DNA of 64,000 nucleotides from an uncultured Rhizobiaceae bacterium (GCA_964350815.1 CAYGKW010000001.1:156120-220119); one strand, 5' to 3'. Counted from the stretch's first letter, positions 35,698 to 55,381 are shown. Made by a program: numbers and translations. The notes: generated by a model not told the origin, from the letters alone.

Positions 35698-35773
<76 letters not shown>

Positions 35774-35822
35774 CTTAAAATCAAGGACTACAGACGTTCG
35801 TACTATTCTTATAAAACTCTTC

Positions 35823-35842
35823 GGTGCTACCCTGGTGCTACT
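35823..35842 (+). repeat. Inner 20-bp direct repeat GGTGCTACCCTGGTGCTACT (copy 1)
   Basis: Identical 20-mer at 49801..49820, just upstream of the integrase start codon. Each copy sits just inside the att repeats. Possible arm-type or secondary att site. Confidence 0.5.
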
Positions 35843-35889
35843 TTTGGAATATTAAAAAGCTATGCCCAAAAATAAAAGGGATCTTAATT

Positions 35890-36426
35890 ATGAAAAAAAA
35901 CTCAAATAAAATAATCCTTGGAATTCCAGATAATCCAGAAGTTAAGCAAGCTGTAGGAGAACTGGCTATTGCGCATGGAAATATGGAAATGATTTTTATT
36001 TACTGTCTAAAAACTATAGAAGACGTAAAGCCAATACAAGCTATGAAGCAATACAGGAACTCAAGTGGCGAGAAGAAAGGTAAGAAAATTAGTACTAGAG
36101 GAAGAATCACACGTATACTGGATAACAACGTGCCTGAAACTCCTCCTTATAGTGAAGCAAAAGAAAAAATAAATGACTATATAGAAGAATCCTGGAAACT
36201 AACTCATATTAGGGATAGATATCTTCATTGTTTTTGGGGGAAAAGAAATGACTCAGGAAACTGGGAAATAAGCACTGACCACAATATTTGGAAACCATTA
36301 CCTGCTGCCGATGAAATAACAAAACATGCTAAGGAAATTAGTAAATTTTCAGAAGAATTAAACAAAGAAAGACTGAATAAGAATGGAGCGTTCGAATTTA
36401 TAAGAGCGAAATTATCAAAAGCTTGA
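35890..36426 (+). CDS. Hypothetical protein (island cargo)
   Basis: Start reassigned to the ATG at 35890 (MKKNSNKIIL...); the upstream extension runs across the 20-bp repeat. No recognisable motifs. Confidence 0.5.
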   Translation: MKKNSNKIILGIPDNPEVKQAVGELAIAHGNMEMIFIYCLKTIEDVKPIQAMKQYRNSSGEKKGKKISTRGRITRILDNNVPETPPYSEAKEKINDYIEESWKLTHIRDRYLHCFWGKRNDSGNWEISTDHNIWKPLPAADEITKHAKEISKFSEELNKERLNKNGAFEFIRAKLSKA

Positions 36427-36445
36427 TAGTTAATCTTCATTTGTT

Positions 36446-36982
36446 TCAATACAAAAGAGACAACCTTTCAATTTCTTCTTCCATGTTTGATAATATGGAA
36501 GCTCTTAGCCAATCATATTTAGTTTCCCACCACTCAAAATCTTTTATTTTATCAAGTTTTTCGTTTAAACTTTTACTAAAATATTTATTAGAAAAAACTT
36601 TAATTTCATCAAATATTTGTAAACATACCGATTCAAAATTCTTATATTCTTCCTTGTTATGCAATTCAGAAGATAACAATAAAGCATCTATGCCATTTGA
36701 AGATAATCCGCTGCAAACATTAGAAGCAAATTCATTGATTTCAGCAATTCTTTTTTTATTTAAGCGAACCATCGCATTTTTTTGAATAAACAAATCTCTA
36801 GTTTTTTGGAAAACATTTAATTTAATTCTAAACAAGTCTTTTAATCTCTCTTCCTCTCTATATTGTTCTGTTTTAGAATCTGATTTATATCCTATATACA
36901 TAGCAATAATTCCCGTTAATGCAGAAATTATAGAAACTACTAATGTTGTTATTAATATAAAGTTTTTCTGTGAATTTTTCAT
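36446..36982 (-). CDS. Hypothetical membrane-anchored coiled-coil protein (island cargo)
   Basis: 178 aa with an N-terminal TM (FILITTLVVSIISALTGIIAMYIGY) and a charged helical remainder. Convergent with the 35890 gene. Confidence 0.5.
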   Translation of the reverse strand: MKNSQKNFILITTLVVSIISALTGIIAMYIGYKSDSKTEQYREEERLKDLFRIKLNVFQKTRDLFIQKNAMVRLNKKRIAEINEFASNVCSGLSSNGIDALLLSSELHNKEEYKNFESVCLQIFDEIKVFSNKYFSKSLNEKLDKIKDFEWWETKYDWLRASILSNMEEEIERLSLLY

Positions 36983-37075
36983 AAACCTACCTTTTTACTT
37001 TTTAGATTAAATTAATCCCCATTCACATAAATTCAAGTAGGCTAAATAAATTAGCATATTATATAGAAAACTTTT

Positions 37076-37432
37076 TTACCAAAAGTCATCAACAAACTCT
37101 CTATCTTCATAATCAAAGTCGGGGTCCACTTTTGCGTCCCAGCCTCTCTTACGGCCTTTTGCCTTTAGAAAATATAAAAGACTTTTAACACAACCATTTT
37201 CTATATGTTCCCATAGTTTGTTTTCTGCATAATCGACAAGTTTATATTCAACTTCCTTACAAGCCTTCTTAAATGCAAGGTCTCGTTTTTTCCATTGATA
37301 AAAAGTTTCTGCAGAAATATTTAATTCACGGCAAGTTTCATATATCCTGCCACGATTCTTTTCTAAAACCTTTGGGAATAGTTCTTTTTCTTTTTGTTTG
37401 TATGGCAATCTTGTAATTGTATCTGAACTCAT
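37076..37432 (-). CDS. HTH protein resembling a phage terminase small subunit (TerS-like)
   Basis: Start reassigned to MSSDTITRL at 37432. HTH in ETCRELNISAETFYQWKKR, with a C-terminal ...YFLKAKGRKRGWDAK tail like HTH-type TerS proteins. The longer ORF-track extension overlaps the orphan toxin fragment. Confidence 0.4.
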   Translation of the reverse strand: MSSDTITRLPYKQKEKELFPKVLEKNRGRIYETCRELNISAETFYQWKKRDLAFKKACKEVEYKLVDYAENKLWEHIENGCVKSLLYFLKAKGRKRGWDAKVDPDFDYEDREFVDDFW

Positions 37433-37481
37433 AGTCCCTCTCCTTTCTCTCTTTTTAATATTAAACAATAAACCAAGCCAT

Positions 37482-37745
37482 CTAAAAACGAAGAAATTTA
37501 TCAGATTTATCAGATTTCGGAGAAAAAGGGGGTATAAACATGGCCGCAGCAGCACCGCAGGCAGCCCCAACCCATGGATCATCCCAAGATAAAAGCGCCC
37601 CTGTCGCTGCCCCCAATCCTGCATGCAGAATTTTATGATTCCAATAGCCTATAGCTTCATCCCCATACAATCCACCTATGTTGCTGGCCCCATAACTGCC
37701 GGCCGTCGCAGCAACCATAGATAAGATGCCCTGGGGAAGAATGTC
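37482..37745 (-). pseudogene. Orphan fragment of a polymorphic-toxin gene, homologous to an internal Gly/Ala-rich segment of the 2109-aa toxin
   Basis: Peptide ATAGSYGASNIGG..HKILHAGLGAATGALLSWDDPWVGAACGAAAAM matches toxin residues in the ...ATAGSYGASTIGDAYWHGGVGYVGHKVLHAGLGAATGALSSWDNPWVGAASGAAAAM region. Nucleotide identity holds over about 240 bp (compare 39400..39640), then the frame diverges and stops 18 codons later. Confidence 0.6.
37499..37519 (+). repeat. 21-bp direct repeat TATCAGATTTATCAGATTTCG (copy 1, at the 3' end of the orphan fragment)
   Basis: Exact 21-mer also at 44878..44898 (290 bp upstream of the toxin start). Contains an internal 9-mer tandem (ATCAGATTT x2). Confidence 0.6.
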
Positions 37746-37779
37746 TAATTATCTTTTAAAGACTAAAAATAATGGACTG

Positions 37780-38271
37780 TTATTTTTTTCTTAATTCTTC
37801 CAGTTCTTTCATTGCTTCTTCTTCTGACTTCAAGTTATTCATTAATTCATCAAAGTCATTCGCAAGCAAAGAAATTCCATCCCCCTCAACGTGCCAAAAA
37901 ACAATAGGGGGATTATCTGTGTCTGGATTTTCCCTGTAATCAAAACAAAATAAATTTCCTCCACCATCAATACCAAAAGCCACTATGCCTTTGGGAAAAA
38001 ATTCTGGGGGAGCATTTAATATTTCTATAAATTTTTCATAGGGATATGATCGTCCAAACCCCAAAAAACCATCAAAATTGTATATAGAATGGTAGTTTAA
38101 GTTTTTATCGTAATAGCAGCCATAGCTATGTATATCTTCTAAAACTCCTCCATTACAATCTATTTGAGTGTTTATATATAATTCAGGAAAGCTATAGCCG
38201 CATAGTTTTAATTCTTTATTAATTTCTTCAGGATTACCAGAAAAACATTTAGAAAACTTATTTTTCAACAT
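37780..38271 (-). CDS. Immunity protein, SMI1/KNR4 (SUKH-1) family
   Basis: 163 aa. Its start overlaps the toxin stop by 14 nt. SUKH-1 pattern: ..LP/FPELYINTQIDCNGG.. then GIVAFGIDGGGNLFCFDY and PIVFWHVEGDG...LANDFDELMNNL. Confidence 0.6.
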   Translation of the reverse strand: MLKNKFSKCFSGNPEEINKELKLCGYSFPELYINTQIDCNGGVLEDIHSYGCYYDKNLNYHSIYNFDGFLGFGRSYPYEKFIEILNAPPEFFPKGIVAFGIDGGGNLFCFDYRENPDTDNPPIVFWHVEGDGISLLANDFDELMNNLKSEEEAMKELEELRKK

Positions 38272-41200
38272 TAACTTCCCCCCATGTATTCATTCCACCT
38301 TTGTGCCCAGTTTCTCTATGGGGCACTCTTTTCATTAATTGCATTCGGCCTGCTTCTTGATGATGATGCCAAGTATAATTTGGTATTCTAGCTTTACCTT
38401 GTAAAACTGCTTCTAGCTCTGCTACAGTAAATTTTTCACTATTAAACTTACCTTGGCGAATTAGTTGTCTCAAGTGTCTTGTCCCCTCTTTCATATGTGA
38501 AACTGAAATCCCGCTTCTTAAACTCTCCGTCACACGCGTTTCAAAGACCACATGTTCATCAAAAATGGGAAATCCTCTGGCATCAAAAGGCACACCCGTT
38601 GTTGGGTGTCGGCTTCCTGCCAAGTGCGCATTTCTTTCCCCAGCACGCAATAATGTATGTGGATGCACTTCCCTATAATGGCTTTCTAACATCCTTAACA
38701 TTGTACGTGGATTATACGGCCCTCTATCCAAATGGGCAAGGTGTCTTGCCCTTGAAAGTTTCCAAGTATTCCACCCCATATGACCTAATTTTCCAATGCC
38801 ATAAGTCCCATATCCAATTCCCATATCAAAGGCTAACTCTCCAAAAGTATGGGGTAACATTACATCAAGGGTTTGTCCCAAGCTGATATCTGGTACCCTC
38901 ATGGCTGCTTGATGCATGGCTATTCTTTCACTGTATGAAAACCCTGAGTCTCCAACACCACTATAGGCCAAAGCTGCTCTTAGGTTTCGTGTAACTAATG
39001 GAACCTTCTGGGTTAATTCTATTAGAGACCCAACGCCTGGTATAGAAGTTCTGCCAAGCCTTCCTAAAGCAATTCCGCCTGCTTCATATATATCATCAGC
39101 CACATCAACTACATGCATATCCCCCGATTCATCGGTGATCACCTCTTCCATACGAGAGAGCATACTCATTGTATTATTCCGAATCGCGCGGTCGGCTGTG
39201 GCATCAGAGATATAGGGGTTACCGCCGGCATAGGCAGTGCCTAGGACAATGCCCACACGCGTTACCCCTTGGACCCATTCAGCCCGTTGTCTTAATGTGC
39301 TGGAGGGTTCCCGTGCATCCCATAGCTTGACAGGTTTATCATTTCCATAAGCTTTACGGAGTTCTGCTGGACTGCCTATGGCGGCCTCCATCACCATTTC
39401 TGCCGTCATGGCCGCAGCAGCCCCACTAGCGGCACCTACCCAGGGATTATCCCAAGATGAAAGCGCCCCTGTCGCTGCCCCCAATCCTGCATGCAATACT
39501 TTATGGCCAACATATCCAACACCCCCATGCCAATAGGCGTCTCCTATAGTAGATGCCCCATAACTGCCCGCTGTGGCAGAAGCAATGGATAAACCAGCCT
39601 GGGTTAAAATGTCAGATCCACGCCCCCCATGCACTGCCCAATTCACCCCTGTCGATACACCTGTCTGTATCGCTGCCCGCCCTAAATGACCCCCAAAGGT
39701 GGTTGCCCTTGGGATAAAACGTATACCTTCCGCATTCACACTTCCATATGCAGAATGAAGGGCCCCTTGGGTTAATCCCTGAGTTACTGCCTGCAAAGCA
39801 ATGGTTTGTATTAAGTCACGTGTAAAAGGATCTTGGCCATTAATGGCTGAAGTTGCAAGATGACTGATCGCTGCTGCACTTGCCCCTTGGGCTGCACCGG
39901 CCAAGAAGGCACTGCTCCAGGTGGATCCGATACCCCCAGTGGCCAGGCCTGCCGCAATAGCTATACCTACTTGTAATCCAGCTCCTGCTGAGTATTGTGT
40001 GTCAGAATAAGAGTGATGCCTATCAGAGACCCACCTACGCACAATATTACCTGATGCCAGGTCAATACTATTCATATTCATTGGCCGCATACGGGGGTCT
40101 TCAACCAAAATGCCATCAGCAGCAAACCTGACAAAACCATCCGTTGTTACAGCGGGACCATAGGTTGTGGAATCATCTGTTCTGATTTTTGAAGTATTAA
40201 CGGCAAATCCTCTTTCAAAGGTTTGACTCATATGATATCGGCGATCTTGGGGCGCCCTTAAAAATATCTGCGGATATCGCCATTTATGGCGGCCTTCAAA
40301 ATGAACCCCTGTCAGATCTGCATCATCGCCCTCTTCATTTAATTCTCCTTCAAATGAATCACGTACATGTTTTTGTTCTGAATCAATTTCTTCTTTTCTT
40401 TTTCCAGAAAAACCAGATTCCCTAGAGACATGTTTTCTTGTAGTGGTTTGTACTGCTCCTATAGCTCTTAATCTATCTGAATGGAAGGTACCCCTTCCTC
40501 TGGCGCGTGCACCAGCCATTAGTGTTTCGTCGACTTTTATATCAAACTCACCAAGTTTTTTACCTTCTCCCGCAATAGCTGAAGCCCGAACGGGGACATG
40601 CCCCTCTTCATGGGTATCTTCATCTATTTGATACATAGTTGTATAGTACGCAGCCTGCATTGTTAGCCTGGGGGCCCTGGCTTTTAAAGCTTCCTTTCCT
40701 TGCACAGTTCCCCCAACCAGGTGGATTTTATTTCCATAAAATAATTGCAACCTTCTAGCTGAAGTATGTCCTGTGGGGGTTGTATCGATTCTACGGATAA
40801 AGGCCGGCATCATTGTTGGATAACCATCCATCATTTGAATACCCCATAAAATCATTGGTTTATCAACGTGGGAAGGATTAATCATTGACATCGTTGTCAT
40901 AGGATTCATAGGAACCATTCGGGTTTCTTTGACCTCTGCATCCATTAATAAGGACTGAGGTCTTGACATAGGTAACGCCAAATGTCCTTTTTCCATAAAC
41001 GTTTGCGTATTGTTTTCTAAATAGGCTAATAAAGCAGGGGGAGATAATTTACTCACCTCTATATCCGTTCCCACCTGCATCGCCAAAACATGGTCTAACG
41101 CTTCAGGGCTAAGGTACTGTCTTACGGGTCTATCACGTGGAAAGTAAACCCCTGGATGAACAAAAACCATTTGAGGGTTGATGGGTAAACCATACCTTAG

Positions 41201-44200
41201 ACGAATAGGGGCCCGAGGGATCATCACTGGACCTCTTGGATCTGGATTTCTTTTATACAGGACCGAATCTAGTTCAGGCCATGATAGGCGAATACCTCCT
41301 TGCCTACCCTCAGGATCAATATTTTCAGAATAAAAATCATGAGAACCTCTAAAAGTTGCCACCCCTCCTGCCCTAAAACGTCCTGTTTGAATCACCCCAT
41401 CTGCTGAAATTGCAGCATCGCGGCCAACTATTATATCGGCAATGGTAGCGGTTCTGGTTTTTCTATAACAACCATTCTTCCACCCCCCCTTTTGGTGATG
41501 TGAATCAGACTCTATCTCCCTAGTTTCATTTCTAAAAAATCCTGAAGGAGAAACGACTGTACCTGCAACAGCTATTTTTCCAATGATATTCACAATACTA
41601 GAAACATTGCGTACATTTGGCATACGATCTGCAATTAAATCTCTAGCTATTCTTATATGTGACGGCCTAGAGGTTTCGGCATCAAAATAAGCTTTCGTGT
41701 AGGCCCCCTCAAGACCATACTCTTTTCTAAAAATATCATAAATAGTATTTTCAATCTTTCTCACATGGGGATAAGCATTACCATCAACTCTTAAATGAGC
41801 AGCTATTAACTTAAAAAGTACTGATGGAGAAGTCCTATCAAAATGACCCAGCCTCATATTCCCAATGATGTGAACGCTTGCATTGTCAATCAGCATTTGA
41901 TTTCCAAAATAAAACCCTGCTGATCCACTTGTTTGAAGATACGCCCCATTAGGTAAGTAAAACTCAACTGGTCTTTCCCCATCTCTGTGGTGGGTTTTGC
42001 TGCTTAACTTCCCCGTCCCAAGAATAATATCTGTTTTAGACGTTAGAGCCATATCTTGTTCACTGAATAATCGTGCCCATCTTAGATCAAGTAAATGAGC
42101 AGATAGTTCTAGTGGACCTCTTAAGGTATAAACTTCAACCAAATGACCCCCTCGACCAACCCGAAGGGTTTTTGGGGTTGTTAACCTTAATCCATACTCT
42201 CCTTCAACTCTTAAAGGACGTTCGATGATGATATTGCCGTGCGTATCAACATGATATCCATTGGCTTTAAACCGTTCCGGAAGTCTAAAGTCCCCCGTGT
42301 TTTTATTGGTAATCGAAATTGCCCCAGAGGATTGTAATCTGGCACTTTCTAAATCCATCGTATCTGCTTCTAGAACTAATGAAGCTTTGGCTGCCCCTAA
42401 ATCACTTGTTGCTGTTACAAAAGGCATTAAAAAGTGTCTTTCTCTTTCCCATGCTGCATCTTCTCTTGCTTCAGCAATTTCTGCGGCTCTTGCTTCTCTT
42501 ATCAATCTATTTAAGGCATTTGAAAAATCCCTACGTTTTTGCCTCATTTTTTTGCCAGGGGAAAAACATTCTTTATATATTTTCCCAAGGTCAATTCTTT
42601 TAAACATCCCAAGAGTTACCCCTTTACGAGTTAGAGCTCTTTTTACAACCTCCCTCTCTGGGAAAGATAAGTTTGTTAATGGATCAGGGAAAAACACTCT
42701 TTTTAAGGGACGAAGGTCTTTCGTTAAACCAAACCTAAGGCTTGCTGAATTAAGCACTATTCTTGTCGCCTCTATATCACTCCTAATCTTTAAGGCCTCT
42801 TCAATCTCTGCTGTAAACCCTCCCTCTTTTGATAATACCCGACCTTTTAAATCTAATGATTTTGATTCAACCGAGATATCTTTTTCACTTTCAAAACTTG
42901 CGGCCTCACCAGCAAAAACAACACCAACACCAGGGGCCTTTAAATCCACCCCACCCTTGGCAAAAATTGGTTTTTCAAGCCCTAAAGTCCCTAATCCAGA
43001 ATTAACCCTAAGCTGTAAGGCTGAGCTTGTTCTTATCCCTTCTCTTAAATCTGGAAGGGCGTCAAACGTCATATCTAATAATCTTGCCGCACGCAAACGT
43101 TCTGGGTCATAGGCAAAGGCGCCACGGGATCTTATGATAAGGTCTGCCAACTGTAGAGCGGTTCCTTCTGAATCTTTTGAAAGACTAGAGTATTTCCCTT
43201 CCAAATTTCCCTCAGAAAAATCCAATTCGACTTTGCCATCAGAGGCCATAATACCTGTTTTGGCATGGTACAAGCGCCCTTGGGATTTCAATTGAACACC
43301 TAAACGGGCACTTACCAAACCTGCAACAGTTAGGCCTTCTGCCATAGTTGAAAATAATTGATCGCTACGACTAAAGAGTTTGGCTGATTCAGCAACAAGC
43401 AATGATCTCCCTGTTAAATCTAATCTATTTTCTGCCCTTAAATCACCTTCTATACTGAGTACATCGAAATCCATAGAACCGGTATCCGTATCAAGGACAC
43501 CCCCCTTATCGAGGGTTAAAGCTCCTCTCTCTAAAACAAAATGTTTTGCTTTAACAGAACCTGCTATATGTCCTTCACCTGATAATCCAAGCGTGTGATC
43601 AACAGAAGTCTCGACCTCTCCTCGTTGGGCATAAGCGCTTTCCACGGTTTCCGTTAATCTTTCTGCTGTGATTTTTCCATCATTCACATAATGGGCGGAT
43701 AAAATACTTAACCAATTATCAGCATCCATGGTGGATCGGGCATCAATAATACCTGTCTCTCTATTGATAAAATAATCGGTAGCGATTAAAGATTGATGGG
43801 CTTCACCCCCTCCATACACACTCAATTCGCCGGCACTATCAAACCGGCTGCCGTAGGCCATAAATCTTGAAAGGCCATGGACTTCATTTCCCTTGGCCAG
43901 TTTAAATCCAGTAGAAGTCGGCCCGCCTGTCATCACAGCTTCCAAAGCAACAGTCATAAAATCTTGTTCAACACTTAATCCTGGGGCCATAACTTTTAAA
44001 CCAGCTGCAACATAAGCATCTTTATAGCCGGAAAAGGTAACATCTTGGGATAACCTTATGGTAAACCGGGTTTGGCTTTCGTTCAGATTAATAACTTCAA
44101 CCTTACCATCTGGCATTAAAACAAAACTTAATGGAAATTCCGGAATTTTTTCGGTTGAAAGGCTGCATTCCATACCCCCTTTTTTAGGAACAGCCGCAAT

Positions 44201-44587
44201 CCGTGAAGCCCCCCTTTTTGATGCAGAGGCAACTGATGCTAAATCTCCAGAATCTGTTTTCCTAAATTGTTCTGAGGTTTCCCATTGGGGGGTTCCCGCC
44301 TTATCCAGCTGACGTATACGAACCTCAAACCCAGGCAAAGTTTTTGCAAACCCATCTGCGCCATCAGCATCAACAAGTTTTCCCTCCACACTTTTAAGTT
44401 TTTTTAAATTTGAAAATCTTCCTGGCAGATGTCGGACTTCAACTTCGATATCTTGCATCGCACAGGCACAAACGGCCAGCATGTTTTGAAAGATAAATGT
44501 AAACAGAACTGTATAAACCACAATCCTTTTGCTTGGTCTTAGCGCCTTAACCGCCCTGTTAAAGATGTTCTTTGTTCTATTGTTCAT
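38258..44587 (-). CDS. Giant polymorphic toxin (2109 aa): signal sequence, a long beta-helical or filamentous repeat region, a Gly/Ala-rich pre-toxin segment and a C-terminal WHH-family HNH-superfamily nuclease domain
   Basis: N-terminal hydrophobic signal or anchor (VVYTVLFTFIFQNMLAVCACA). More than 1000 aa of degenerate G/S/T-rich repeats. The C-terminus ...NYTWHHHQEAGRMQLMKRVPHRETGHKGGMNTWGE fits the WHH nuclease signature. An immunity gene follows immediately. Confidence 0.7.
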   Translation of the reverse strand: MNNRTKNIFNRAVKALRPSKRIVVYTVLFTFIFQNMLAVCACAMQDIEVEVRHLPGRFSNLKKLKSVEGKLVDADGADGFAKTLPGFEVRIRQLDKAGTPQWETSEQFRKTDSGDLASVASASKRGASRIAAVPKKGGMECSLSTEKIPEFPLSFVLMPDGKVEVINLNESQTRFTIRLSQDVTFSGYKDAYVAAGLKVMAPGLSVEQDFMTVALEAVMTGGPTSTGFKLAKGNEVHGLSRFMAYGSRFDSAGELSVYGGGEAHQSLIATDYFINRETGIIDARSTMDADNWLSILSAHYVNDGKITAERLTETVESAYAQRGEVETSVDHTLGLSGEGHIAGSVKAKHFVLERGALTLDKGGVLDTDTGSMDFDVLSIEGDLRAENRLDLTGRSLLVAESAKLFSRSDQLFSTMAEGLTVAGLVSARLGVQLKSQGRLYHAKTGIMASDGKVELDFSEGNLEGKYSSLSKDSEGTALQLADLIIRSRGAFAYDPERLRAARLLDMTFDALPDLREGIRTSSALQLRVNSGLGTLGLEKPIFAKGGVDLKAPGVGVVFAGEAASFESEKDISVESKSLDLKGRVLSKEGGFTAEIEEALKIRSDIEATRIVLNSASLRFGLTKDLRPLKRVFFPDPLTNLSFPEREVVKRALTRKGVTLGMFKRIDLGKIYKECFSPGKKMRQKRRDFSNALNRLIREARAAEIAEAREDAAWERERHFLMPFVTATSDLGAAKASLVLEADTMDLESARLQSSGAISITNKNTGDFRLPERFKANGYHVDTHGNIIIERPLRVEGEYGLRLTTPKTLRVGRGGHLVEVYTLRGPLELSAHLLDLRWARLFSEQDMALTSKTDIILGTGKLSSKTHHRDGERPVEFYLPNGAYLQTSGSAGFYFGNQMLIDNASVHIIGNMRLGHFDRTSPSVLFKLIAAHLRVDGNAYPHVRKIENTIYDIFRKEYGLEGAYTKAYFDAETSRPSHIRIARDLIADRMPNVRNVSSIVNIIGKIAVAGTVVSPSGFFRNETREIESDSHHQKGGWKNGCYRKTRTATIADIIVGRDAAISADGVIQTGRFRAGGVATFRGSHDFYSENIDPEGRQGGIRLSWPELDSVLYKRNPDPRGPVMIPRAPIRLRYGLPINPQMVFVHPGVYFPRDRPVRQYLSPEALDHVLAMQVGTDIEVSKLSPPALLAYLENNTQTFMEKGHLALPMSRPQSLLMDAEVKETRMVPMNPMTTMSMINPSHVDKPMILWGIQMMDGYPTMMPAFIRRIDTTPTGHTSARRLQLFYGNKIHLVGGTVQGKEALKARAPRLTMQAAYYTTMYQIDEDTHEEGHVPVRASAIAGEGKKLGEFDIKVDETLMAGARARGRGTFHSDRLRAIGAVQTTTRKHVSRESGFSGKRKEEIDSEQKHVRDSFEGELNEEGDDADLTGVHFEGRHKWRYPQIFLRAPQDRRYHMSQTFERGFAVNTSKIRTDDSTTYGPAVTTDGFVRFAADGILVEDPRMRPMNMNSIDLASGNIVRRWVSDRHHSYSDTQYSAGAGLQVGIAIAAGLATGGIGSTWSSAFLAGAAQGASAAAISHLATSAINGQDPFTRDLIQTIALQAVTQGLTQGALHSAYGSVNAEGIRFIPRATTFGGHLGRAAIQTGVSTGVNWAVHGGRGSDILTQAGLSIASATAGSYGASTIGDAYWHGGVGYVGHKVLHAGLGAATGALSSWDNPWVGAASGAAAAMTAEMVMEAAIGSPAELRKAYGNDKPVKLWDAREPSSTLRQRAEWVQGVTRVGIVLGTAYAGGNPYISDATADRAIRNNTMSMLSRMEEVITDESGDMHVVDVADDIYEAGGIALGRLGRTSIPGVGSLIELTQKVPLVTRNLRAALAYSGVGDSGFSYSERIAMHQAAMRVPDISLGQTLDVMLPHTFGELAFDMGIGYGTYGIGKLGHMGWNTWKLSRARHLAHLDRGPYNPRTMLRMLESHYREVHPHTLLRAGERNAHLAGSRHPTTGVPFDARGFPIFDEHVVFETRVTESLRSGISVSHMKEGTRHLRQLIRQGKFNSEKFTVAELEAVLQGKARIPNYTWHHHQEAGRMQLMKRVPHRETGHKGGMNTWGEVNVEK

Positions 44588-44877
44588 AATCCACCTGTAC
44601 TTGTCTTATTGTTTATAGAAATGTTCTTGTATGAAGTAGGATATTTATACGGACACCAGATCTGTGAGTAAAGACCAAAACAAAAACATTTCCCGTTATT
44701 TTTTTATTTGTTTTTTATTGAGAAGGATAAGGTCGTTTGAAAAACTGCCTCCTGTTATTTTTTACTTAGATTGGAATCTGTAACCTATTTTTCAAGTTTA
44801 AATATGAAATATAATAAAAGTTATGGTTATAAACCTTGATTGAATTTTAAAAAGACACTTAAAAAAAACCATAAAAA

Positions 44878-44898
44878 TATCAGATTTATCAGATTTCG
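44878..44898 (+). repeat. 21-bp direct repeat TATCAGATTTATCAGATTTCG (copy 2, upstream of the toxin gene)
   Basis: Exact match to 37499..37519. Together the two copies bracket the toxin, the immunity gene and the orphan fragment (about 7.4 kb). Confidence 0.6.
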
Positions 44899-44919
44899 TT
44901 AACCTATCTTAGCCTTTGT

Positions 44920-45090
44920 GAAACATCTCTGTTTCAGCATTTGTTTCCATGGTGTTTCAGATGAATCGCTGTACACAGGTCTTTTTCTATAGACGTTTCA
45001 TCTTTTGTTTCATAGGCGTCTCAATTTAATAACAAGTGTTTCACTGTTCCATTCCTATAGAGTGAAACAATGAAACAAACTTCATGTAAC
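44920..45090. repeat. Iteron-like array of GTTTCA/TGAAAC motifs; putative replication origin of the island
   Basis: At least nine copies of (T)GTTTCA(C/T) or its complement lie within 170 bp, immediately 3' of the primase-helicase gene. P4-type origins sit in the same position. Confidence 0.3.
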
Positions 45091-47037
45091 TTATTTGGCA
45101 ACCAATACTTCTGCCTCCATCTTCTTTATCACCCTATGCGCCTTGCTAGAACTAATATCAAGTTCCTTAGCAATTTCACGTCGGGACATTCCTTCTTGCT
45201 GAAGCTCCCATACTTTTTTCTCTAAAATATTTTCTATATCATTAACTTGCCATGCTAAAGCCTCATCTTCTTCTGTTATCAAAGTTAACTCAAAAGGTTT
45301 AGATGACTCTCCATAAAAACCCCTTGCCTTTTGGTAGTGAAGTTCAAAAGTTGCCCCATTATGCTCTTCTTTGTCATTGCTTTCTTTTAATTCAATAACA
45401 GTATCTAATGAATCTTCTTTTCTTGAAGTTCCCCTTTGCTTTCCATTTTTATTTGCATGATGGATAATAAGAACAGATATTCCACGACACCTTAACGATA
45501 AAAGCCATTCAAGAATCAATACCCAACTATCACTGTCATTTTCTTTATAAGAGCGGCACAAAGAAGAAAGATTATCGAGGATTAATAACTCTACACCTTC
45601 CAAATGCTCTTCAATATATGATTGCCCTTCTTGGGTTGATAAATCTGGCATCGAATGCTCTTGTTGATCGGGGGTAATAATATGAAGTTTTTTTAAATCC
45701 CTTTCCTTGCACCCATACCCTCTACTAATAGACCTTATTCTTTCTTGTAATGAAACCTGGGACATTTCTCCATCCAAAAACAAGACTTTCCTTGGAGATG
45801 GCGCTTTCCATCGACCATCAAACATTTCTTTTCCAGAAACAACAGCACATGCGATAGACAAACTTAAGAATGTTTTTCCAATACCAGGTTTTGCAAATAT
45901 CATCGCTAAACCCTGTTCTGGGATAATAGGGCCTAAAATCATTTCTCTTGGACGAAGGGGAATTGTTAAAAAATCCAAGGCATTATTACATCTTAATCTT
46001 CTTCTGTTTAAAGCATCCTCAATTTGCTTTTTAACTTCCTCTAACCCTTCTAAAACATGTAGATCATTAAAGTCTTTTGGATGCGTCTTTGTTTCCTTAA
46101 ACTGAGGCAATACCATTTTACACCCATATCGACTAGCAACTGATTGAGCAGCTTCTTTCCCTGTATTCTTTCCTTTCCACTGATCATTATCACCAGCTAT
46201 TAGAAAAGAATGGTATAGATACTGATCACGGAAAACCTTAACTACAGGATCAATATTCCCGGCATCAAAACAGATAATAACTGGATAGCCAGTTGCTTCA
46301 TGAATAGAGGCTGCTGTGGCATATCCCTCTGAAAAAATAATTGGCTTAGTTTTGTTAGCTTCAATCGTTCCTATTATATGAAAGCATCCTTGCTTACGCC
46401 CGCCAGTTTTAAACCATTTATCCCTGCCATTTTTATCTCTCTTCTCTGCTATTCTCTGATAACTCCATATCTTTCCATAAATATCCTGCAACGGTATAAC
46501 CAGATAGCTTTGATTGATACGAACGCCATAGGGATTAACATGCTTTATCTGTAAATAGGTGTGACAGTCTTTTGACTGAACTTCTCTAAAACTTTCCAAG
46601 TCTTTTACTGCTTGTTCAGCAATTTCTTTTTGGGATTTAAGGCGCCTTTCTTCTCTTTCTTTTTTTGCTGCAACAATTTTGGATTGAATTTCCTTCCACT
46701 GTTCTGGATTTAGGAGTTGTCTATCTTTTTTGAACCAGAGAACTTTAGGTAAATTACCACTCCAATCCCCAATTACTCCCCAAGTTAGGCCTGCAATATA
46801 CCAACACCTTTTTTTCTTGCCAAAGCGATGAACATTCTCATCATGCTGTATAGAAAGGGGAATGTCATATCCTGACAACCTAAAACAATCTTCAAATATT
46901 TCCGCTTCACATCTAAACTCATTTCCAAAATCAAAAGTCTTTGTTTGATGTTTAGAACCAAAATTGGTATTGTTACTATTGAAACTACTATCACGTCCGC
47001 CTCGACCAAAGGCGGGCTTTTTTATGCCATTACTCAT
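45091..47037 (-). CDS. Replication protein: TOPRIM primase domain fused to a P-loop (RepA/D5-like) helicase, with a C-terminal HTH
   Basis: TOPRIM-like segment VIICFDAGN...LIAGDNDQWKG. Walker A FAKPGIGKTFLSL and Walker B LLILDNLSS. C-terminal HTH MSRREIAKELDISSSKAHR. Likely start at M13 (47037), 2 nt after the alpA stop. Confidence 0.7.
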   Translation of the reverse strand: MSNGIKKPAFGRGGRDSSFNSNNTNFGSKHQTKTFDFGNEFRCEAEIFEDCFRLSGYDIPLSIQHDENVHRFGKKKRCWYIAGLTWGVIGDWSGNLPKVLWFKKDRQLLNPEQWKEIQSKIVAAKKEREERRLKSQKEIAEQAVKDLESFREVQSKDCHTYLQIKHVNPYGVRINQSYLVIPLQDIYGKIWSYQRIAEKRDKNGRDKWFKTGGRKQGCFHIIGTIEANKTKPIIFSEGYATAASIHEATGYPVIICFDAGNIDPVVKVFRDQYLYHSFLIAGDNDQWKGKNTGKEAAQSVASRYGCKMVLPQFKETKTHPKDFNDLHVLEGLEEVKKQIEDALNRRRLRCNNALDFLTIPLRPREMILGPIIPEQGLAMIFAKPGIGKTFLSLSIACAVVSGKEMFDGRWKAPSPRKVLFLDGEMSQVSLQERIRSISRGYGCKERDLKKLHIITPDQQEHSMPDLSTQEGQSYIEEHLEGVELLILDNLSSLCRSYKENDSDSWVLILEWLLSLRCRGISVLIIHHANKNGKQRGTSRKEDSLDTVIELKESNDKEEHNGATFELHYQKARGFYGESSKPFELTLITEEDEALAWQVNDIENILEKKVWELQQEGMSRREIAKELDISSSKAHRVIKKMEAEVLVAK

Positions 47038-47242
47038 GATCACCCCCCTCTTTAACAGTCGTATTATTTTCAATAAAATTCATTAAGTCCGACAATCGAT
47101 ACTTTGCTAATCGCCCCACCTTGACCATCGGCAACCCATAACGTTTGTTACAAGCCCATACGGCCAAAGTACCTTCTGTTGTTCCTAAAAGTTCAGCTGC
47201 TTCTTTCCGATTGAGAAGCTTATTAGTTTGTTCTATTTTCAT
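47030..47242 (-). CDS. alpA: AlpA-family transcriptional regulator / excisionase (Phage_AlpA HTH)
   Basis: 70 aa, LLNRKEAAELLGTTEGTLAVWACNKRYGLPMVKVGRLAKYRLSDL, the classic prophage CP4-57 AlpA fold. Confidence 0.75.
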   Translation of the reverse strand: MKIEQTNKLLNRKEAAELLGTTEGTLAVWACNKRYGLPMVKVGRLAKYRLSDLMNFIENNTTVKEGGDHE

Positions 47243-47310
47243 AGGCTTTATTCCTCTTAAAGTTAAAACTACCTATGTTAATAATCATTCTGAATTGTTG
47301 AAAAAAGACC

Positions 47311-47324
47311 GTTCGCTAGCGAAC
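47311..47324. promoter_or_regulatory. 14-bp perfect palindrome GTTCGCTAGCGAAC upstream of alpA (candidate operator)
   Basis: Perfect dyad about 70 bp upstream of the alpA start codon, in an AT-rich intergenic region. Confidence 0.25.
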
Positions 47325-47630
47325 CTACCTAAAAATTTTAGAGGTTGGACTAGATAAGTTACCTGGAGGTTGTTTGTATTGGCGAAATAAGCAGCAGAGG
47401 TAGCAAATATAAATAAGAAAAGTTATGGATTTTTGTGCTAAAGTAACAGGATGAGTAGTAGTAGAAGTTAGCATTAGCCATCTTCAGTGATTCTTAATTA
47501 TTAAAAAGTTCACAGACAGCAATTTTACCACTTCTTGAAAGAAGTGAATTCAGATTCACTTTTTGTTTTTCTAGTGACAATTGAAGCTTTTGAGGGAACT
47601 GTGTATTTTTGTTAACTCTTAGTTCCTTTA

Positions 47631-48626
47631 TCAAGGCCAACCAAAAAAATAACCTCTATTTTTGGTTAGCCAATTTTCAATTTCAATAAGCTTCTCAATA
47701 ATTTTTTTGGAGGGAATACCTATATGAATTTCTTTATCTTTCCCTTTCTCGTGTTCATTAATCCATTTTATAATGGTCTTGATGCCCTGCTCTTCTGAAA
47801 TTAAATGTTTATCCCCACTATCTTTCAATTTTTCATAAATTGCAGTTGCTGCTTCGGTTTTATTCTTATAGTTATTTTTATTTTCATCCCAATGCTTAAT
47901 TGCAAATTCATTTGATTTTTGAAATTTGTTATTCCATCGTTTTTGGAACCCTTTCTTTCTTGATTTTAGCTCCTTCCAAATCAGAGCAATTCTTTGATTA
48001 GACATAGTATTATAATCTTCAAAAAAAGTTTTAGGTTCAGAAAATTTTCCATGGCGCGTCCAGGAATTATATGAATTACAATGTTCTATCGGTGACCATG
48101 AAGTTTGATTATTAAACTCTTGATAGGCTTTTGAAGCAACTTTTATCCAACTCACTTGATGCATATTAATTTTTAACGAATATTCAGAATTATGCACGGT
48201 GTTTTTTTGGATAGATATATACTCCCCTAGGGATATAAGAAAGATGACAGGAAAGATATCCTTTAACATTAAATCAGTCCAACCTTCATCTTTTAGGTTT
48301 AAAAAAAATTCCTCTTTATTCCATTTATAATATAAATTAAATACATCGAAAAAATCAGGATTCTTAGTTTCTGTACATCTTTGAAAGTGAACTTCATTTC
48401 TAATATTTCTCAATTTAGAAAGTATTCCCTCTTGATTTGTATCAATTAGATTTTCCAAAAAATAAGCTAAGTTTAATATTTCTTCTGTAGAAAATCTTCT
48501 TTGCTTAAAATACTCATTAACATGCCAGAGTTCATGTTGAAAAGGTAGATTATAATCTTCTAATAATGATTTATAATTCTCACCTAGGAGTTCTGAAATA
48601 ACCTCTTGGTATGATTTAGTTTTCAT
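47631..48626 (-). CDS. Hypothetical protein (island cargo, unknown function)
   Basis: 331 aa, W/Y/K-rich, no recognisable motif. Its start overlaps the integrase stop (ATGA). Confidence 0.5.
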   Translation of the reverse strand: MKTKSYQEVISELLGENYKSLLEDYNLPFQHELWHVNEYFKQRRFSTEEILNLAYFLENLIDTNQEGILSKLRNIRNEVHFQRCTETKNPDFFDVFNLYYKWNKEEFFLNLKDEGWTDLMLKDIFPVIFLISLGEYISIQKNTVHNSEYSLKINMHQVSWIKVASKAYQEFNNQTSWSPIEHCNSYNSWTRHGKFSEPKTFFEDYNTMSNQRIALIWKELKSRKKGFQKRWNNKFQKSNEFAIKHWDENKNNYKNKTEAATAIYEKLKDSGDKHLISEEQGIKTIIKWINEHEKGKDKEIHIGIPSKKIIEKLIEIENWLTKNRGYFFGWP

Positions 48627-49798
48627 TTTGACCTACCTTCCTCAGTCACATTCATAAGCATTGCGCTGGTGGCACGGTTAACTGATTCCCTTACTGGATC
48701 AATATTTAATCGAGCATAAATGGCTGTTGCTTGTTGTGTTTTGTGTCCTAAAGATTTCCCAATGACATAGCTGTTGGCTCCAGTGGCCGCTTGCCAGCTC
48801 CCTAATGTTCTTCGTAAATCATGCAATCTTAAGTCTGTCAGATTTGCTTCTTCTAATATTCTTTTCCAGACACGCTTTGGTTCTTCTAAGTGTCCTGACT
48901 GGCTAGTTTTACTGGGAAATACCCAATCATTTTCTTTATAGATATGGCGTTGACGAAGAATTTTGATAATGTCAGACGATAATGGAATAAGATGCGATTC
49001 CCCATTCTTTGTTTCTGGTATGTTCCAAGTCTCCTTATTAAGGTCCACATCTTGCCAACGCATACTTAAGACATTTCCCTTGCGAGCCCCTGTTAAAAGA
49101 CACACCATAAAAAAGTCTGTAAATAATTTATTGGGTTCTTTTGCCAGAGCTTGAAAGAAACGTGATAGTTCTTCTCCTTGTAAAAATCTTTCGCGACTTT
49201 TTTCTTTAAACTTCTTAATACCTTCGACAGGTGATTTTCCATCCCATCCCCAATCCATGGCTTTATTAAACATAACCCCTAAAAGAGCCAACATACGATT
49301 TGCAGCATAAACTCCATTTACCTTTCCTACATTTGAATGGAGTGCTTCAAAGTCAGCTTTATGAAAACTAGAAATCTTTCTTTTCTTTAAATGAGATAAA
49401 TAAAGGCGATAAATATTTTCATCATTCTTCCAAGACTTTTTATGAAGCTTTGCATGTCCCTCTAGGTATCTTTCAAAAAGCTCCCCAAAAGTTAACTCTG
49501 CTTTTAATTTTGATTTCTCACGATTAGGATTTTTGCCTAGAGAAATTTGTGAATTTATACTTGAAGCTTGTCCACGTGCATTTTCAACAGACAGATCAGG
49601 ATAATACCCCAACATAATACGTTCAGGCCGACCTTTAACCTTTCGGTAGACATAAAAAGTTTTTGTTCCTTTGCTTGTAACGGAAATAATAAGAGCACGT
49701 ACTTTTGTATCATAATAATAAAATCTCTTCCCTTGTGGTGGTAAAGGAAGAACCTCCAAAGCTTTCTTAGTAAAGTTAATTTTGTTATCAGTCTTCAT
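48623..49798 (-). CDS. int: Tyrosine site-specific integrase (phage/P4-type)
   Basis: 391 aa. C-terminal catalytic box ...HDLRRTLGSWQAATGANSYVIGKSLGHKTQQATAIYARL (R..HxxR..Y). N-terminal arm-binding-like domain. Adjacent to attR. Confidence 0.9.
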   Translation of the reverse strand: MKTDNKINFTKKALEVLPLPPQGKRFYYYDTKVRALIISVTSKGTKTFYVYRKVKGRPERIMLGYYPDLSVENARGQASSINSQISLGKNPNREKSKLKAELTFGELFERYLEGHAKLHKKSWKNDENIYRLYLSHLKKRKISSFHKADFEALHSNVGKVNGVYAANRMLALLGVMFNKAMDWGWDGKSPVEGIKKFKEKSRERFLQGEELSRFFQALAKEPNKLFTDFFMVCLLTGARKGNVLSMRWQDVDLNKETWNIPETKNGESHLIPLSSDIIKILRQRHIYKENDWVFPSKTSQSGHLEEPKRVWKRILEEANLTDLRLHDLRRTLGSWQAATGANSYVIGKSLGHKTQQATAIYARLNIDPVRESVNRATSAMLMNVTEEGRSK

Positions 49799-49800
49799 TT

Positions 49801-49820
49801 GGTGCTACCCTGGTGCTACT
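49801..49820 (+). repeat. Inner 20-bp direct repeat GGTGCTACCCTGGTGCTACT (copy 2)
   Basis: Identical to 35823..35842. Begins 3 nt upstream of the integrase ATG (minus strand). Confidence 0.5.
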
Positions 49821-49938
49821 CTCTAGGTTAAATTTAGTTAATTTCAGTTGACTTTAGTAAAGAGTGGAATACCATAAAATATAAGGCTGGTAAAGAGAAA
49901 TTAAACTTTGTTAAATTTGAGAAAATGTATGACTTTAA

Positions 49939-49985
49939 GACTCTTAATCAGCGGGTCACAGGTTCGAATCCTGTAGTGCCCACCA
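49939..49985 (+). repeat. attR: 47-bp duplicate of the tRNA-Lys 3' half
   Basis: Exact copy of 35727..35773. Similarity to the tRNA stops abruptly 5' of the anticodon loop. Confidence 0.8.
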
Positions 49986-50168
49986 TTCAAATTAAAATTT
50001 GTCAGTCTATTCTAGAACTATTGGTAAAAGAGAGAGACATCAATGAAAAACCAATTTCTAAAATTTATATTTTTGATATTTTTCACCACTGGATTTTTCC
50101 ATAGCACAGATGCCAAAAACAACTGCAACAATAGCCTTCCAATAAACTTAGATAAAATAAGAGTATAA

Positions 50169-51203
50169 TATAATCTACAAGCCTTTGCCGTTGGTTTTGT
50201 TGACATTAAAAATATTAACACTTGGGTTATTAGTAATGATACTCCAAGGAGTAAACCCAGACTTAAAAGCAAATGGCTTTTTGCCTCTAACACAAAACCG
50301 ATGACAGCCCTACTTATTGCAAAATTGGTGGAACAAGGTAAACTTACTTGGTCATCAAAAATCAAAGATATCTTTCCTGAGCTTTCAAATCAATCTCTTG
50401 CAGAGTTCAATGAAATCACAGTTGAACAGCTTCTGTCACATTCAGCAGGGCTGGCTAAAGATAGCCCTGGTATATTTGAATCTCTCGAAAACTGGCCAGG
50501 ATATATTAAACATATTGATACAATGAACGCGCACATTTTAGAAAATAAAAACCGACCCCTTACAGATCAACGATTAGATGTTCTGGCAGATTTTGGAAAG
50601 AAAAAACTTAAACACCCCAAAAATGAATTTCATTATTCAAATGTTGGATATGTTATTTTGGGGGCAATTATAGAAAAGGTGACCGGCCTTAGTTATGAAA
50701 CAGCGATGACCAAGCTTTTATTTAAACCTTTAGGAATAGACTCAGCTGAATTCAAACTTTCTGATGACTCTGTCCCTCCTACTAAACTTAATGGGCATTA
50801 CTTTACAAATCAACCTAGGCAAAAAGTTATGCTACTTGCTTTATGAATCCAGCGGGTGGGGTTTATATTGCAATAAATGATTGGGCTTTTTTCATCCAAG
50901 AACTTATTAATGGGCTTGCAGGTAAAAGTACTTACTTGAAAAAAGAAACTTATAAAAAAGTTATTTACACCGGTTATTAATGACAGGACACTAACACACA
51001 AAATTATTGATGGAGAATTATCCCATCTTGGAACAGATCTTTTATCAACTTCTATTTCAAAAATAGACATCAAAAAGAAAACTGGGGTCTTGTTTGTCAT
51101 AAACAGAGGGTTTAATTATTCTCTTCCCCCCAGTCAGTATAAACAGACCCCAGTGTTTAAAGCTTTTAATGAGACAAAGTTACTGCCATTTCATGAATTA
51201 TAA
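50169..51203 (+). pseudogene. Beta-lactamase / PBP4*-family serine hydrolase pseudogene (frameshifted, no start codon)
   Basis: SxxK motif in FASNTKPMTA (about 50275..50300). Reading continues through frameshifts near 50846 and 50980 (NPAGGVYIAINDW..., then ...KKTGVLFVINRGFNYSL). No ATG upstream in frame after the stop at 50166. Confidence 0.5.
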
Positions 51204-51334
51204 AACATTATGCTTCTTAACTATCAATATCTGAGTCCATTTGTTGAAAATCCACCACCTTCGTTTACTAGAAAAAAACCGGGGCCACCGGCTTTTTATC
51301 TACATTGAACTTTAATGGAATCTCATGACAGTGT

Positions 51335-51703: not shown

Positions 51704-52068
51704 AAACAAATCCCCTATTTATGATTAGATCCTTAGATCTTACCTCATTAATCTTTTTTTGCAACAGACCCATGAAACGGATAGATAGATAGATACATAA
51801 AAAAAGGATGCCATGCATAAGCAAACAAAAATAACTTTGGAAGACGCAATCGCGGAGAAGATATCTTTTACAGAATCAAGACTATTTTTGATAGAACCTT
51901 CATTTCTAGGATTTGGAAAAATCAAAAAATTGAAGCGAAGCTGATTGCTAATATACTGAATAAAATGACAAGCCTTAGTATATCAATAACGCAATAATAT
52001 CCCAAACCTTTGGAAATATTGTCCTTCAACCGTTTTTTGATTTACAACACAAAGCAAAGCCAAAAAAG

Positions 52069-53825: not shown

Positions 53826-53828
53826 AGT

Positions 53829-55378: not shown

Positions 55379-55381
55379 GGT

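Follow-up and report, generated by a model that had tools for sequence, protein, structure and literature searches.

Results

A giant toxin gene and the gene that follows it

We analyzed 64,000 nucleotides of an uncultured Rhizobiaceae bacterium (GCA_964350815.1 CAYGKW010000001.1:156120-220119; here called the window, with positions counted from its first letter), with attention to a predicted polymorphic toxin gene, its immunity gene, and the mobile island that carries both. The toxin gene lies on the minus strand at 38258 to 44587 and, by the open reading frame (ORF) list and translation, encodes 2,109 amino acids (aa) followed by a stop codon. Directly after it on the same strand comes a gene for a 163-aa protein (37780 to 38271) that Pfam assigns to the SUKH-1 (SMI1/KNR4) immunity family. 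From its N terminus, the toxin comprises a probable Sec signal peptide (aa 1 to 43; minus strand, as for all of its parts, 44459 to 44587), which was recognized by hydropathy scan and by a pattern kept in the homolog P0003; an N-terminal region (aa 44 to 720; 42428 to 44458) characterized by an AlphaFold2 (AF2) model, Pfam, Foldseek, and hhalign; and a conserved core (aa 721 to 1540; 39968 to 42427) delimited by phmmer, BLASTP, and alignments. There follow a DUF637-type pretoxin region that ends in AIRNN (aa 1541 to 1805; 39173 to 39967), placed by Pfam and by alignment to the protein P0002; a linker with an entry-like module (aa 1806 to 1944, the module being aa 1849 to 1941, 38765 to 39043), defined by its match to the protein P0010; and a WHH/colicin-DNase His-Me-finger nuclease domain (aa 1945 to 2109; 38261 to 38755), assigned by Pfam, AF2, and Foldseek.

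The gene has a good Shine-Dalgarno sequence (AGGTGG), and the persistence of an intact 6.3-kb frame in a genome of about 37% guanine plus cytosine (GC) argues for a functional toxin gene. Scanning the toxin/immunity operon with consensus sequences turned up neither a convincing promoter nor a convincing terminator, and sites were fewer than in shuffled sequence. Neither protein was matched in NCBIfam or PADLOC.

The C terminus is predicted to be a WHH-type nuclease

The tip of the toxin matched two nuclease families above their curated cutoffs: colicin-DNase (PF12639; aa 2001 to 2097, E value of 2.9e-13, 50.9 bits against a cutoff of 25, profile positions 3 to 96 of 96) and WHH (PF14414; aa 2065 to 2103, E value of 2.3e-10, 40.5 bits against a cutoff of 25.1). 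A C-terminal WHH nuclease of the HNH superfamily is what the initial annotation had proposed, and the motif residues could be located at W2073-H2074-H2075-H2076, H2090, H2095, and G2097-G2098. A database search with aa 1806 to 2109 recovered 12 relatives, of which 11 match the nuclease (aa ~1945 to 2104) at 36 to 52% identity and the twelfth, P0010, matches the entry-like module only. Among the nuclease relatives are CdiA fragments that bear PT-VENN (P0009 from Rodentibacter and P0012), a protein with the source name "filamentous hemagglutinin" (P0018), and a 172-aa orphan module of Pannonibacter (P0016). The nearly invariant columns of a 13-sequence alignment (GFPIFD, IP.YTWHHHQ..GRMQL, and H....GH.GG) are kept in the toxin, and the motif residues from W2073 to G2098 fall within them.

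When AF2 was given the nuclease alignment, it returned a model with a predicted local distance difference test score (pLDDT) of 84 to 98 over aa 1985 to 2099, in which two strands and then a helix form at the WHH motif. The only meaningful match of this model in the Protein Data Bank (PDB) by Foldseek was 8bd1_A, RhsP-WHH (probability of 1.00, E value of 6.9e-3, target TM-score of 0.48, 24% identity), and a sequence search of the PDB likewise placed 8bd1 at the top, weakly. Thus, an HNH-type fold with catalytic histidine pairs, on which the first assignment depended, is present in a confident beta-beta-alpha model, and the C terminus is, on this modeling, a WHH/colicin-DNase His-Me-finger nuclease with a beta-beta-alpha core. 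Such a nuclease would degrade nucleic acid, DNA most likely. The nuclease fold and the WHH motif are common to this protein, to RhsP-WHH/RhsPI (8bd1), and to the WHH toxins of Zhang et al. 2011 and 2012, but RhsP-WHH is carried on an Rhs scaffold with a type VI secretion system (T6SS), the scaffold here is a CdiA-like stalk, and identity to RhsP-WHH is only 24%. In themselves, the toxin tip and the immunity gene are ordinary and add one more member to well-known families.

A SUKH-1 gene pairs with the nuclease

The downstream 163-aa protein matched SMI1_KNR4/SUKH-1 (PF09346) with an E value of 3.7e-17 and 63.5 bits (cutoff, 25.4) and SUKH_6 with 39.6 bits (cutoff, 27), while no PDB relative was found by sequence at an E value of 1 or below. 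Its ORF shares 14 nt with that of the toxin (38258 to 38271), so that both the family and the overlap are as originally described. That the two genes are a toxin/immunity pair was also part of the original description and finds a parallel on a Bacillus plasmid. In a tblastn search of plasmids, B. cereus pCER270 (NC_010924.1) was found to encode a type VII secretion system (T7SS) WXG100 toxin that ends in a nuclease 43.5% identical to the toxin tip and is followed directly by an SMI1/KNR4 gene, the product of which is 35% identical to the immunity protein (E value of 3e-11). Gene order is identical at the two loci, but the pCER270 toxin belongs to a Gram-positive T7SS, is about 410 aa long, and has an unrelated N-terminal trafficking part. 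Because the nuclease/SUKH-1 adjacency is repeated on pCER270, the pairing is cognate, and the tip and immunity gene thus move jointly as a module across unrelated delivery systems. On these sequence comparisons, we conclude that the SUKH-1 gene is the immunity gene of the WHH toxin.

WHH nucleases 40 to 45% identical to this one also occur in canonical orphan arrays of contact-dependent inhibition (CDI) loci. There, the genes that follow the nucleases (10519 to 10914 on contig L039 and 5316 to 5696 on contig L035) encode a conserved family of 126- to 131-aa proteins that are 38% identical to each other, are not SUKH, and have no Pfam match. One nuclease subfamily therefore pairs with at least two unrelated immunity families.

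A CdiA-like pretoxin region and a modular C terminus

Ahead of the nuclease, aa 1565 to 1713 matched DUF637 (E value of 5.4e-4 with the whole protein and 6e-5 with a fragment) at 20.2 to 23.3 bits, under the cutoff of 26.6. The region is rich in Gly and Ala and aligns to P0002 (E value of 4.2e-9 database-wide and 2e-16 pairwise), a protein whose own DUF637 match of 50.6 bits is above the cutoff. PT-VENN (PF04829) had no match in the toxin. Both DUF637 and PT-VENN are listed as pretoxin domains of type V secretion system (T5SS) toxins (Zhang et al. 2012, PMC3482391). The initial annotation had named DUF637 among the Pfam families to be searched and missed the region itself; of the other families on its list, the nuclease and SUKH-1 were recovered, the two-partner secretion (TPS) domain was not, and Fil_haemagg appeared weakly.

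The pretoxin region ends in A1801-I-R-N-N1805, which aligns with the AVENN of P0003 and recurs in P0010, and similarity to both proteins breaks at this position. By alignment, AIRNN would be the equivalent of VENN at the junction between pretoxin and C-terminal toxin region (CT). Past the junction, the entry-like module (aa 1849 to 1941) is 65% identical to aa 69 to 161 of P0010, which has the same ...GGNP...AIRNN junction and the same kind of module but another C-terminal domain. Therefore, the region past the motif is bipartite and modular, like CdiA-CT, and by analogy aa 1849 to 1941 may function in cell entry. The AF2 model is of low confidence across this module.

Downstream of the immunity gene, DNA comparison uncovered what is left of a second DUF637 toxin gene (37539 to 37745, minus strand). 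The 207 nt of this relic read in frame as AGSYGASNIGGLYGDEAIGYWNHKILHAGLGAATGALLSWDDPWVGAACGAAAAMF, are 74% identical in DNA to 39407 to 39613 of the toxin gene, have a GC content of 54.6%, and end before any VENN motif or CT region. By analogy, the relic would be the kind of homology stretch that orphan cassettes keep for recombination. At the P0003 locus, the order is toxin gene, immunity-sized gene, and orphan DUF637 genes. A 182-aa ORF that overlaps the relic (37076 to 37624) was considered as an orphan toxin and rejected, as its 5' part reads through the relic in another frame and the actual gene encodes a 118-aa TerS-like helix-turn-helix (HTH) protein.

P0002 (353 to 5755 on contig L001, which is 36% GC) is 1,800 aa long, with a signal peptide and DUF637 and without a TPS domain. 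Its C terminus contains a "VLHHNGQ" sequence that resembles an LHH-type HNH motif, and no immunity gene comes after it, the next gene being a convergent NB-ARC/TPR/GerE regulator. The body of P0002 matches canonical CdiA with an E value of 1e-19, so P0002 bridges the family of the toxin to ordinary CdiA proteins.

A textbook CDI locus for comparison is that of Pannonibacter phragmitetus (L039), with cdiB, cdiA (TPS, FilH, and DUF637), cdiI, and orphan modules. Its CdiA is 2,100 aa long, close to the 2,109 aa here, and the two proteins are alike in having a Sec signal, a DUF637-type region with a VENN-type motif at its end, a bipartite CT, an immunity gene directly after, and orphan or relic fragments downstream. 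The WHH nuclease subfamily is itself present in the Pannonibacter locus as an orphan module (40% identity). Unlike CdiA, the toxin here has no TPS domain, no cdiB, and no Fil_haemagg repeats above threshold; its motif is AIRNN rather than VENN, its first 1,500 aa are nearly orphan, and its immunity protein is SUKH-1 rather than a member of the 126- to 131-aa family used by the canonical arrays.

A probable signal peptide and a body with few relatives

The sole hydrophobic segment near the N terminus is aa 21 to 45 by hydropathy scan. The layout is that of a signal peptide: a basic n-region, a 12-aa h-region (IVVYTVLFTFIF), the polar residues Q34-N35, and finally MLAVCACA as the c-region, in which A41-C42-A43 forms an AXA site. 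Moreover, the pattern Y..VL..F..Q..L..CA.A is conserved in P0003, the full-length homolog. Where the initial annotation had left open a hydrophobic signal or an anchor, the AXA site and the conserved pattern favor the former, and the N terminus probably serves as a Sec signal peptide that is cleaved off. Processing as a lipoprotein at the conserved C40 was considered and is unlikely, as the -1 residues V, L, and I do not fit a lipobox.

From aa 44 to ~640, the protein is beta-rich in a low-confidence AF2 model (aa 46 to 720; pLDDT of 51.5). The best Foldseek matches of that model had E values above 0.1 and included generic beta-helices and three TPS domains. A segment of about 90 residues that is rich in K, R, and E and predicted to be helical (...KKMRQKRRDFSNALNRLIREARAAEIAEAREDAAWERERHF...) interrupts the beta-rich N-terminal region at aa ~630 to 720 (42428 to 42700) and is absent from P0003. 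Pfam at an E value of 10 or below found bactofilin alone in the N-terminal region (E value of 0.061). The Fil_haemagg match of the body was weak (E value of 0.049, below the cutoff), a profile of the core aligned to the filamentous hemagglutinin (FHA) region of canonical CdiA by hhalign with an E value of 8.7e-4 and a probability of 23%, and P0003 and P0004 aligned to CdiA at about 4e-4. These matches hint at a very remote kinship between the stalk and proteins of the filamentous hemagglutinin type. The claim that the long central part consists of degenerate beta-helix-like repeats did not hold up: self-BLAST of the toxin found no internal repeats at an E value of 10 or below, which leaves the low-confidence beta-rich model and the weak matches.

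Relatives of the body are few. An exhaustive phmmer search with aa 1 to 1200 against 1.84 billion representative proteins returned four other proteins only, P0003 to P0006. P0003 is 25% identical over aa 721 to 1828, and P0004, P0005, and P0006 have the core alone in common with the toxin. A word-indexed search with the full protein returned the toxin itself and P0002, a profile search with the core alignment returned nothing, and no relative was found in genome and metagenome contigs scanned with one alignment (A3) or in viral contigs scanned with the alignment of P0004 to P0006 (A5). By these searches, aa 1 to ~1500 belong to a near-orphan family.

The distant core homologs P0004 (2050 to 5370 on L036) and P0005 (1740 to 5201 on L037 and 1522 to 4983 on L038) have neither a signal peptide nor a toxin tip. 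P0004 adjoins genes for a eukaryotic-type eIF4E (E value of 6.4e-25), a WLM protease, and DnaJ, a neighborhood that looks like that of a giant virus. P0005 lies on contigs of 27% GC with ankyrin-repeat, GIY-YIG, and type I restriction-modification specificity-like genes, and its neighborhood is ambiguous.

The toxin module is carried on a satellite-like island at tRNA-Lys

An exact 47-nt repeat marks the ends of an island. The left attachment site, attL (35727 to 35773, plus strand), is the 3' 47 nt of a tRNA-Lys(CTT) gene (35698 to 35773) identified by ARAGORN, and attR (49939 to 49985, plus strand) is an exact copy of that 3' end. The repeats therefore delimit the island as 35774 to 49985. 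Beside attR lies a tyrosine integrase gene with an arm-binding domain (48623 to 49798, minus strand; Phage_integrase, 3.1e-29; Arm-DNA-bind_3, 5.3e-11; PHROG 1, 1.6e-62). Candidate arm-type sites, GGTGCTACCCTGGTGCTAC, are present at 35823 to 35841 and at 49801 to 49819, only at the two island ends. They coincide with tandem GGTGCTAC pairs at 35820 to 35842 and 49798 to 49820, and GGTGCTAC occurs at these four positions only in the window.

A replication module separates the integrase from the toxin gene. The gene upstream of the toxin is the island primase-helicase (45091 to 47073, minus strand), with Toprim, AAA_25, and winged HTH matches in Pfam and a PHROG DNA primase match of 2.3e-66. Directly after the primase-helicase gene is a cluster of TGAAAC iterons (44900 to 45100), a candidate origin in which 8 of the 63 TGAAAC sites of the window fall within 200 nt. 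The replication module also includes an AlpA-like gene (47030 to 47242; PHROG excisionase-like HTH, about 1e-6), and between this gene and the integrase is a 331-aa gene without family assignment (47631 to 48626, minus strand). On the far side of the toxin module, a TerS-like HTH gene (37076 to 37432, minus strand) encodes 118 aa from M65 of the listed ORF, with a match to PHROG 4044, terminase small subunit (E value of 2.6e-6), and weak HTH matches in Pfam. A 178-aa gene without family assignment (36446 to 36982, minus strand) has an N-terminal transmembrane helix and faint SLATT and 2TM-effector matches (E values of 0.0086 and 6e-4). The gene set of the island is thus integrase, 331-aa gene, AlpA-like gene, primase-helicase, toxin module, TerS-like HTH gene, and two unassigned genes, with no capsid-remodeling or other packaging gene recognized besides the TerS-like HTH gene. 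The description of the locus as a satellite-like mobile island is borne out by the repeats, the integrase, and the replication module. Like P4-like satellites and Gram-negative phage-inducible chromosomal islands (PICI), it is integrated at a tRNA gene, is about 14 kb long, and carries a P4-type integrase, genes for AlpA-like and TerS-like proteins, and a primase-helicase gene with iterons after it. Unlike them, it has no recognized packaging genes or known helper phage, and half of it is toxin cargo.

Within the island, the toxin gene, immunity gene, and relic form a 7.4-kb module set off by composition and by repeats. The toxin gene and the module have a GC content of 43.6%, as against 30 to 35% in the island backbone and 36.6% in the host flank. 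A 21-nt repeat, CGAAATCTGATAAATCTGATA, has one minus-strand copy where the relic is cut off, some 65 nt ahead of the TerS-like gene (37499 to 37519), and another some 290 nt ahead of the start codon of the toxin gene (44878 to 44898). The tandem ATCTGATA pair within it is found at these two places only in the 64-kb window, and the two copies bracket the module. The repeats could mark the points at which a cargo cassette was inserted, or they could act as common operators. The module itself has the look of cargo that arrived on its own or of a jointly regulated unit.

A sister strain with 94% nucleotide identity in the flanks lacks about 26.5 kb at this position (13094 to 13684 on contig L040 compared with 35781 to 62272 in the window). 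The missing DNA comprises the island and a second, 12-kb variable segment (49986 to 62272), which contains a disrupted beta-lactamase-family gene (about 50044 to 50846) and glycosyltransferase and sugar-nucleotide genes. The sister has a single copy of the 47-nt sequence and passes from tRNA-Lys almost directly to SIS/ABC genes, which are at 62.3 kb in the window, but keeps beside the tRNA gene a homolog, 78% identical, of the first ORF of the island (35824 to 36426). The retained homolog suggests a decayed related island. The sister contig has a pcm-tolC-DUF2497-valS gene neighborhood, which suggests an alphaproteobacterium-like source, and a LigA scan recovered relatives of no more than 52% identity.

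Discussion

How the toxin might act is suggested by the order of its domains. In our view, the locus is likely to be a polymorphic toxin/immunity module for use between bacteria, with a P4/PICI-like integrative island at tRNA-Lys as its carrier. Sec would take the 2,109-aa protein across the inner membrane, and the signal would be cleaved at the AXA site, residues 41 to 43. About 1,500 residues of an almost orphan family would then form a beta-rich stalk for surface display, followed by a CdiA-type pretoxin region (DUF637 ending in AIRNN) and a bipartite C-terminal end made of an exchangeable entry-like module (aa 1849 to 1941) and the nuclease. Delivered on contact, the nuclease would attack the nucleic acid, in all likelihood the DNA, of a neighbor cell without immunity, and in the producer cell it would be bound and blocked by the translationally coupled SUKH-1 protein. 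The initial annotation read the locus as a polymorphic toxin, and that interpretation is supported; of the observations behind it, the repeats were not confirmed, and the DUF637 region and a T6SS cluster elsewhere in the window had been missed.

How the toxin leaves the cell is less clear, as was recognized from the start. Pfam found no TPS, Rhs, PAAR, LXG, or autotransporter domain even at an E value of 10 or below on subfragments, nor did it find MafB-N (DUF1020) in the toxin. Neither NPNL nor NPNGI occurs in aa 44 to 330. Alignment of the N-terminal region to the genuine TPS region of Pannonibacter CdiA by hhalign gave a probability of 0.2%. Genes for TpsB, a type I secretion system (T1SS), or a T6SS adaptor were absent from the island, as had been noted, and no POTRA/ShlB gene (cdiB/tpsB) emerged from a Pfam scan that covered the ORFs of the window before 58358. 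The TPS domain, with FhaB/CdiB, is a defining feature of T5SS toxins (Zhang et al. 2012, PMC3482391). Judged from its sequence, the toxin is without the recognizable secretion features that define a type Vb (T5b) system, though it would work like CdiA, and export across the outer membrane probably proceeds without a recognizable TPS domain or linked TpsB/CdiB, by an unlinked or novel route.

One alternative is a canonical two-partner-secretion CdiA, in which a highly diverged TPS beta-helix in the N terminus would be served by a TpsB/CdiB exporter encoded elsewhere in the genome. The protein does begin with a Sec signal and a beta-rich region, its DUF637 and VENN-like features are typical of T5SS toxins (PMC3482391), its body has weak FHA-like similarity, and TPS structures were among the top nonsignificant Foldseek matches (HxuA, with an E value of 0.22, HMW1, and HpmA). 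Each direct search for the domain came back empty, however, from Pfam to the motifs to hhalign. Canonical order is cdiB-cdiA-cdiI, but the gene upstream of the toxin is the primase gene, and the partial gene upstream of P0002 gave no ShlB signal. Moreover, it would be awkward for a self-mobile island to rely on a compatible exporter that does not travel with it. We regard a canonical CdiA as unlikely.

Alternatively, the toxin could be released rather than displayed, leaving the periplasm after Sec by a type II secretion system (T2SS) or by lysis, for example upon induction of the satellite-like island by a helper phage, and acting by diffusion, much like a bacteriocin. A class of Sec-only polymorphic toxins is recognized (T2SS/Sec-dependent row, Table 1, PMC3482391), no exporter is linked to the toxin gene, and an island with integrase, AlpA-like, primase-helicase, and TerS-like genes resembles phage-inducible satellites. 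Neisseria MafB offers a partial parallel, in that it too bears a signal peptide and ends in a polymorphic toxin, is followed by an immunity gene, and is encoded on an island, but the toxin here has a DUF637 pretoxin region and no MafB-N/DUF1020, and its size is roughly fourfold that of MafB. To our knowledge, the route by which MafB crosses the outer membrane is likewise not known. Against release, the window encodes neither a T2SS nor a lysis gene, no helper phage is known for the island, the pretoxin architecture is like that of contact-dependent toxins, and a 220-kDa protein would be a poor diffusible agent. We think release quite unlikely.

A toxin without an exporter might also be a stranded, nonfunctional recombination product that has lost its export domain, or else an effector that a protist-associated bacterium directs at its eukaryotic host. 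In Citrobacter rodentium DBS100, the CdiA-like polymorphic toxin StbD has neither a TPS domain nor a cdiB gene (bioRxiv 10.64898/2026.05.07.723447), and it is inactive natively and becomes active only once fused to cdiBA. With StbD as precedent, a giant toxin without a secretion partner, as first remarked upon here, is unusual but less singular than was implied. In StbD, a fimbrial tip adhesin in a chaperone-usher operon replaces the TPS domain, and the toxin here has nothing comparable; the StbD toxin is a C39 peptidase rather than a WHH nuclease. Consistent with a stranded or host-directed protein are also the distant core relatives beside eIF4E or ankyrin-repeat genes, a host that appears to be an uncultured low-GC alphaproteobacterium, and the absence of an adjacent immunity gene from P0002. 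The frame of 2,109 codons is nonetheless intact and has a good Shine-Dalgarno sequence, and the translationally coupled immunity gene points to a toxin active against bacteria. Moreover, the signal peptide and N-terminal region are common to this toxin (P0001) and P0003, which makes the design without TPS an ancestral trait of the family rather than a local accident. Either version of this account seems improbable to us.

The interbacterial toxin module that we favor also has points against it. Neither a secretion partner nor a known N-terminal trafficking domain was found that would account for delivery to another cell. StbD, the only TPS-less CdiA-like protein described, is inactive in its native form. 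The model of the N-terminal region has a pLDDT of 51.5, low enough to leave room for a cryptic TPS-like beta-helix. The DUF637 match is under the Pfam cutoff, and PF04829 is without a match. Close WHH nucleases in canonical CDI arrays pair with an immunity family other than SUKH. Finally, two distant core relatives have no signal peptide, and the neighbor of at least one is a eukaryotic-type eIF4E gene, so the body may have a role other than display on the bacterial surface.

Polymorphic toxins are classed by their N-terminal trafficking domain, and the toxin here joins T5SS-type pretoxin parts to a Sec signal and a near-relativeless body. One tentative possibility, which we think rather unlikely, is that the first 1,500 residues are a new trafficking-and-stalk architecture that reaches the surface without TPS/TpsB, that has passed between giant-virus-like genomes and uncultured bacteria probably associated with protists, and that is here the cargo of a satellite-like island. 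If so, the toxin would represent a distinct delivery class of polymorphic toxin, more than a divergent T5b system. If the toxin is functional, CdiA-style presentation could be achieved via another outer-membrane route, and phage-satellite-like islands could carry whole interbacterial weapons from strain to strain.

A complete T6SS cluster lies in the same window, 17 kb from the island, and was overlooked when the island was first said to have no T6SS adaptor gene. By Pfam, it extends from about 5567 to 18912 and encodes TssB, TssC, Hcp, TssE, TssF, TssG, ClpV, VgrG, a MORN-repeat protein, and a DUF4280 PAAR-like protein, with PpkA kinase, PppA phosphatase, and VWA-domain genes just upstream (from 1131). 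WHH nucleases are known T6SS Rhs cargo, and the top PDB match was RhsP-WHH, but it is very improbable that the toxin is an effector of this system, since it has a Sec-type signal peptide and, by Pfam, no PAAR, VgrG, Hcp, Rhs, or MIX domain, has no DUF4123, DUF1795, or DUF2169 adaptor gene near it, and sits on a strain-specific island while the T6SS is core genome with VgrG-linked genes of its own. TssC and VgrG have cluster mates at least 90% identical on a 418-kb contig of the sister strain. The MORN-repeat protein, DUF4280 PAAR-like protein, and SPOR-domain protein encoded after VgrG may be the system's own effector set.

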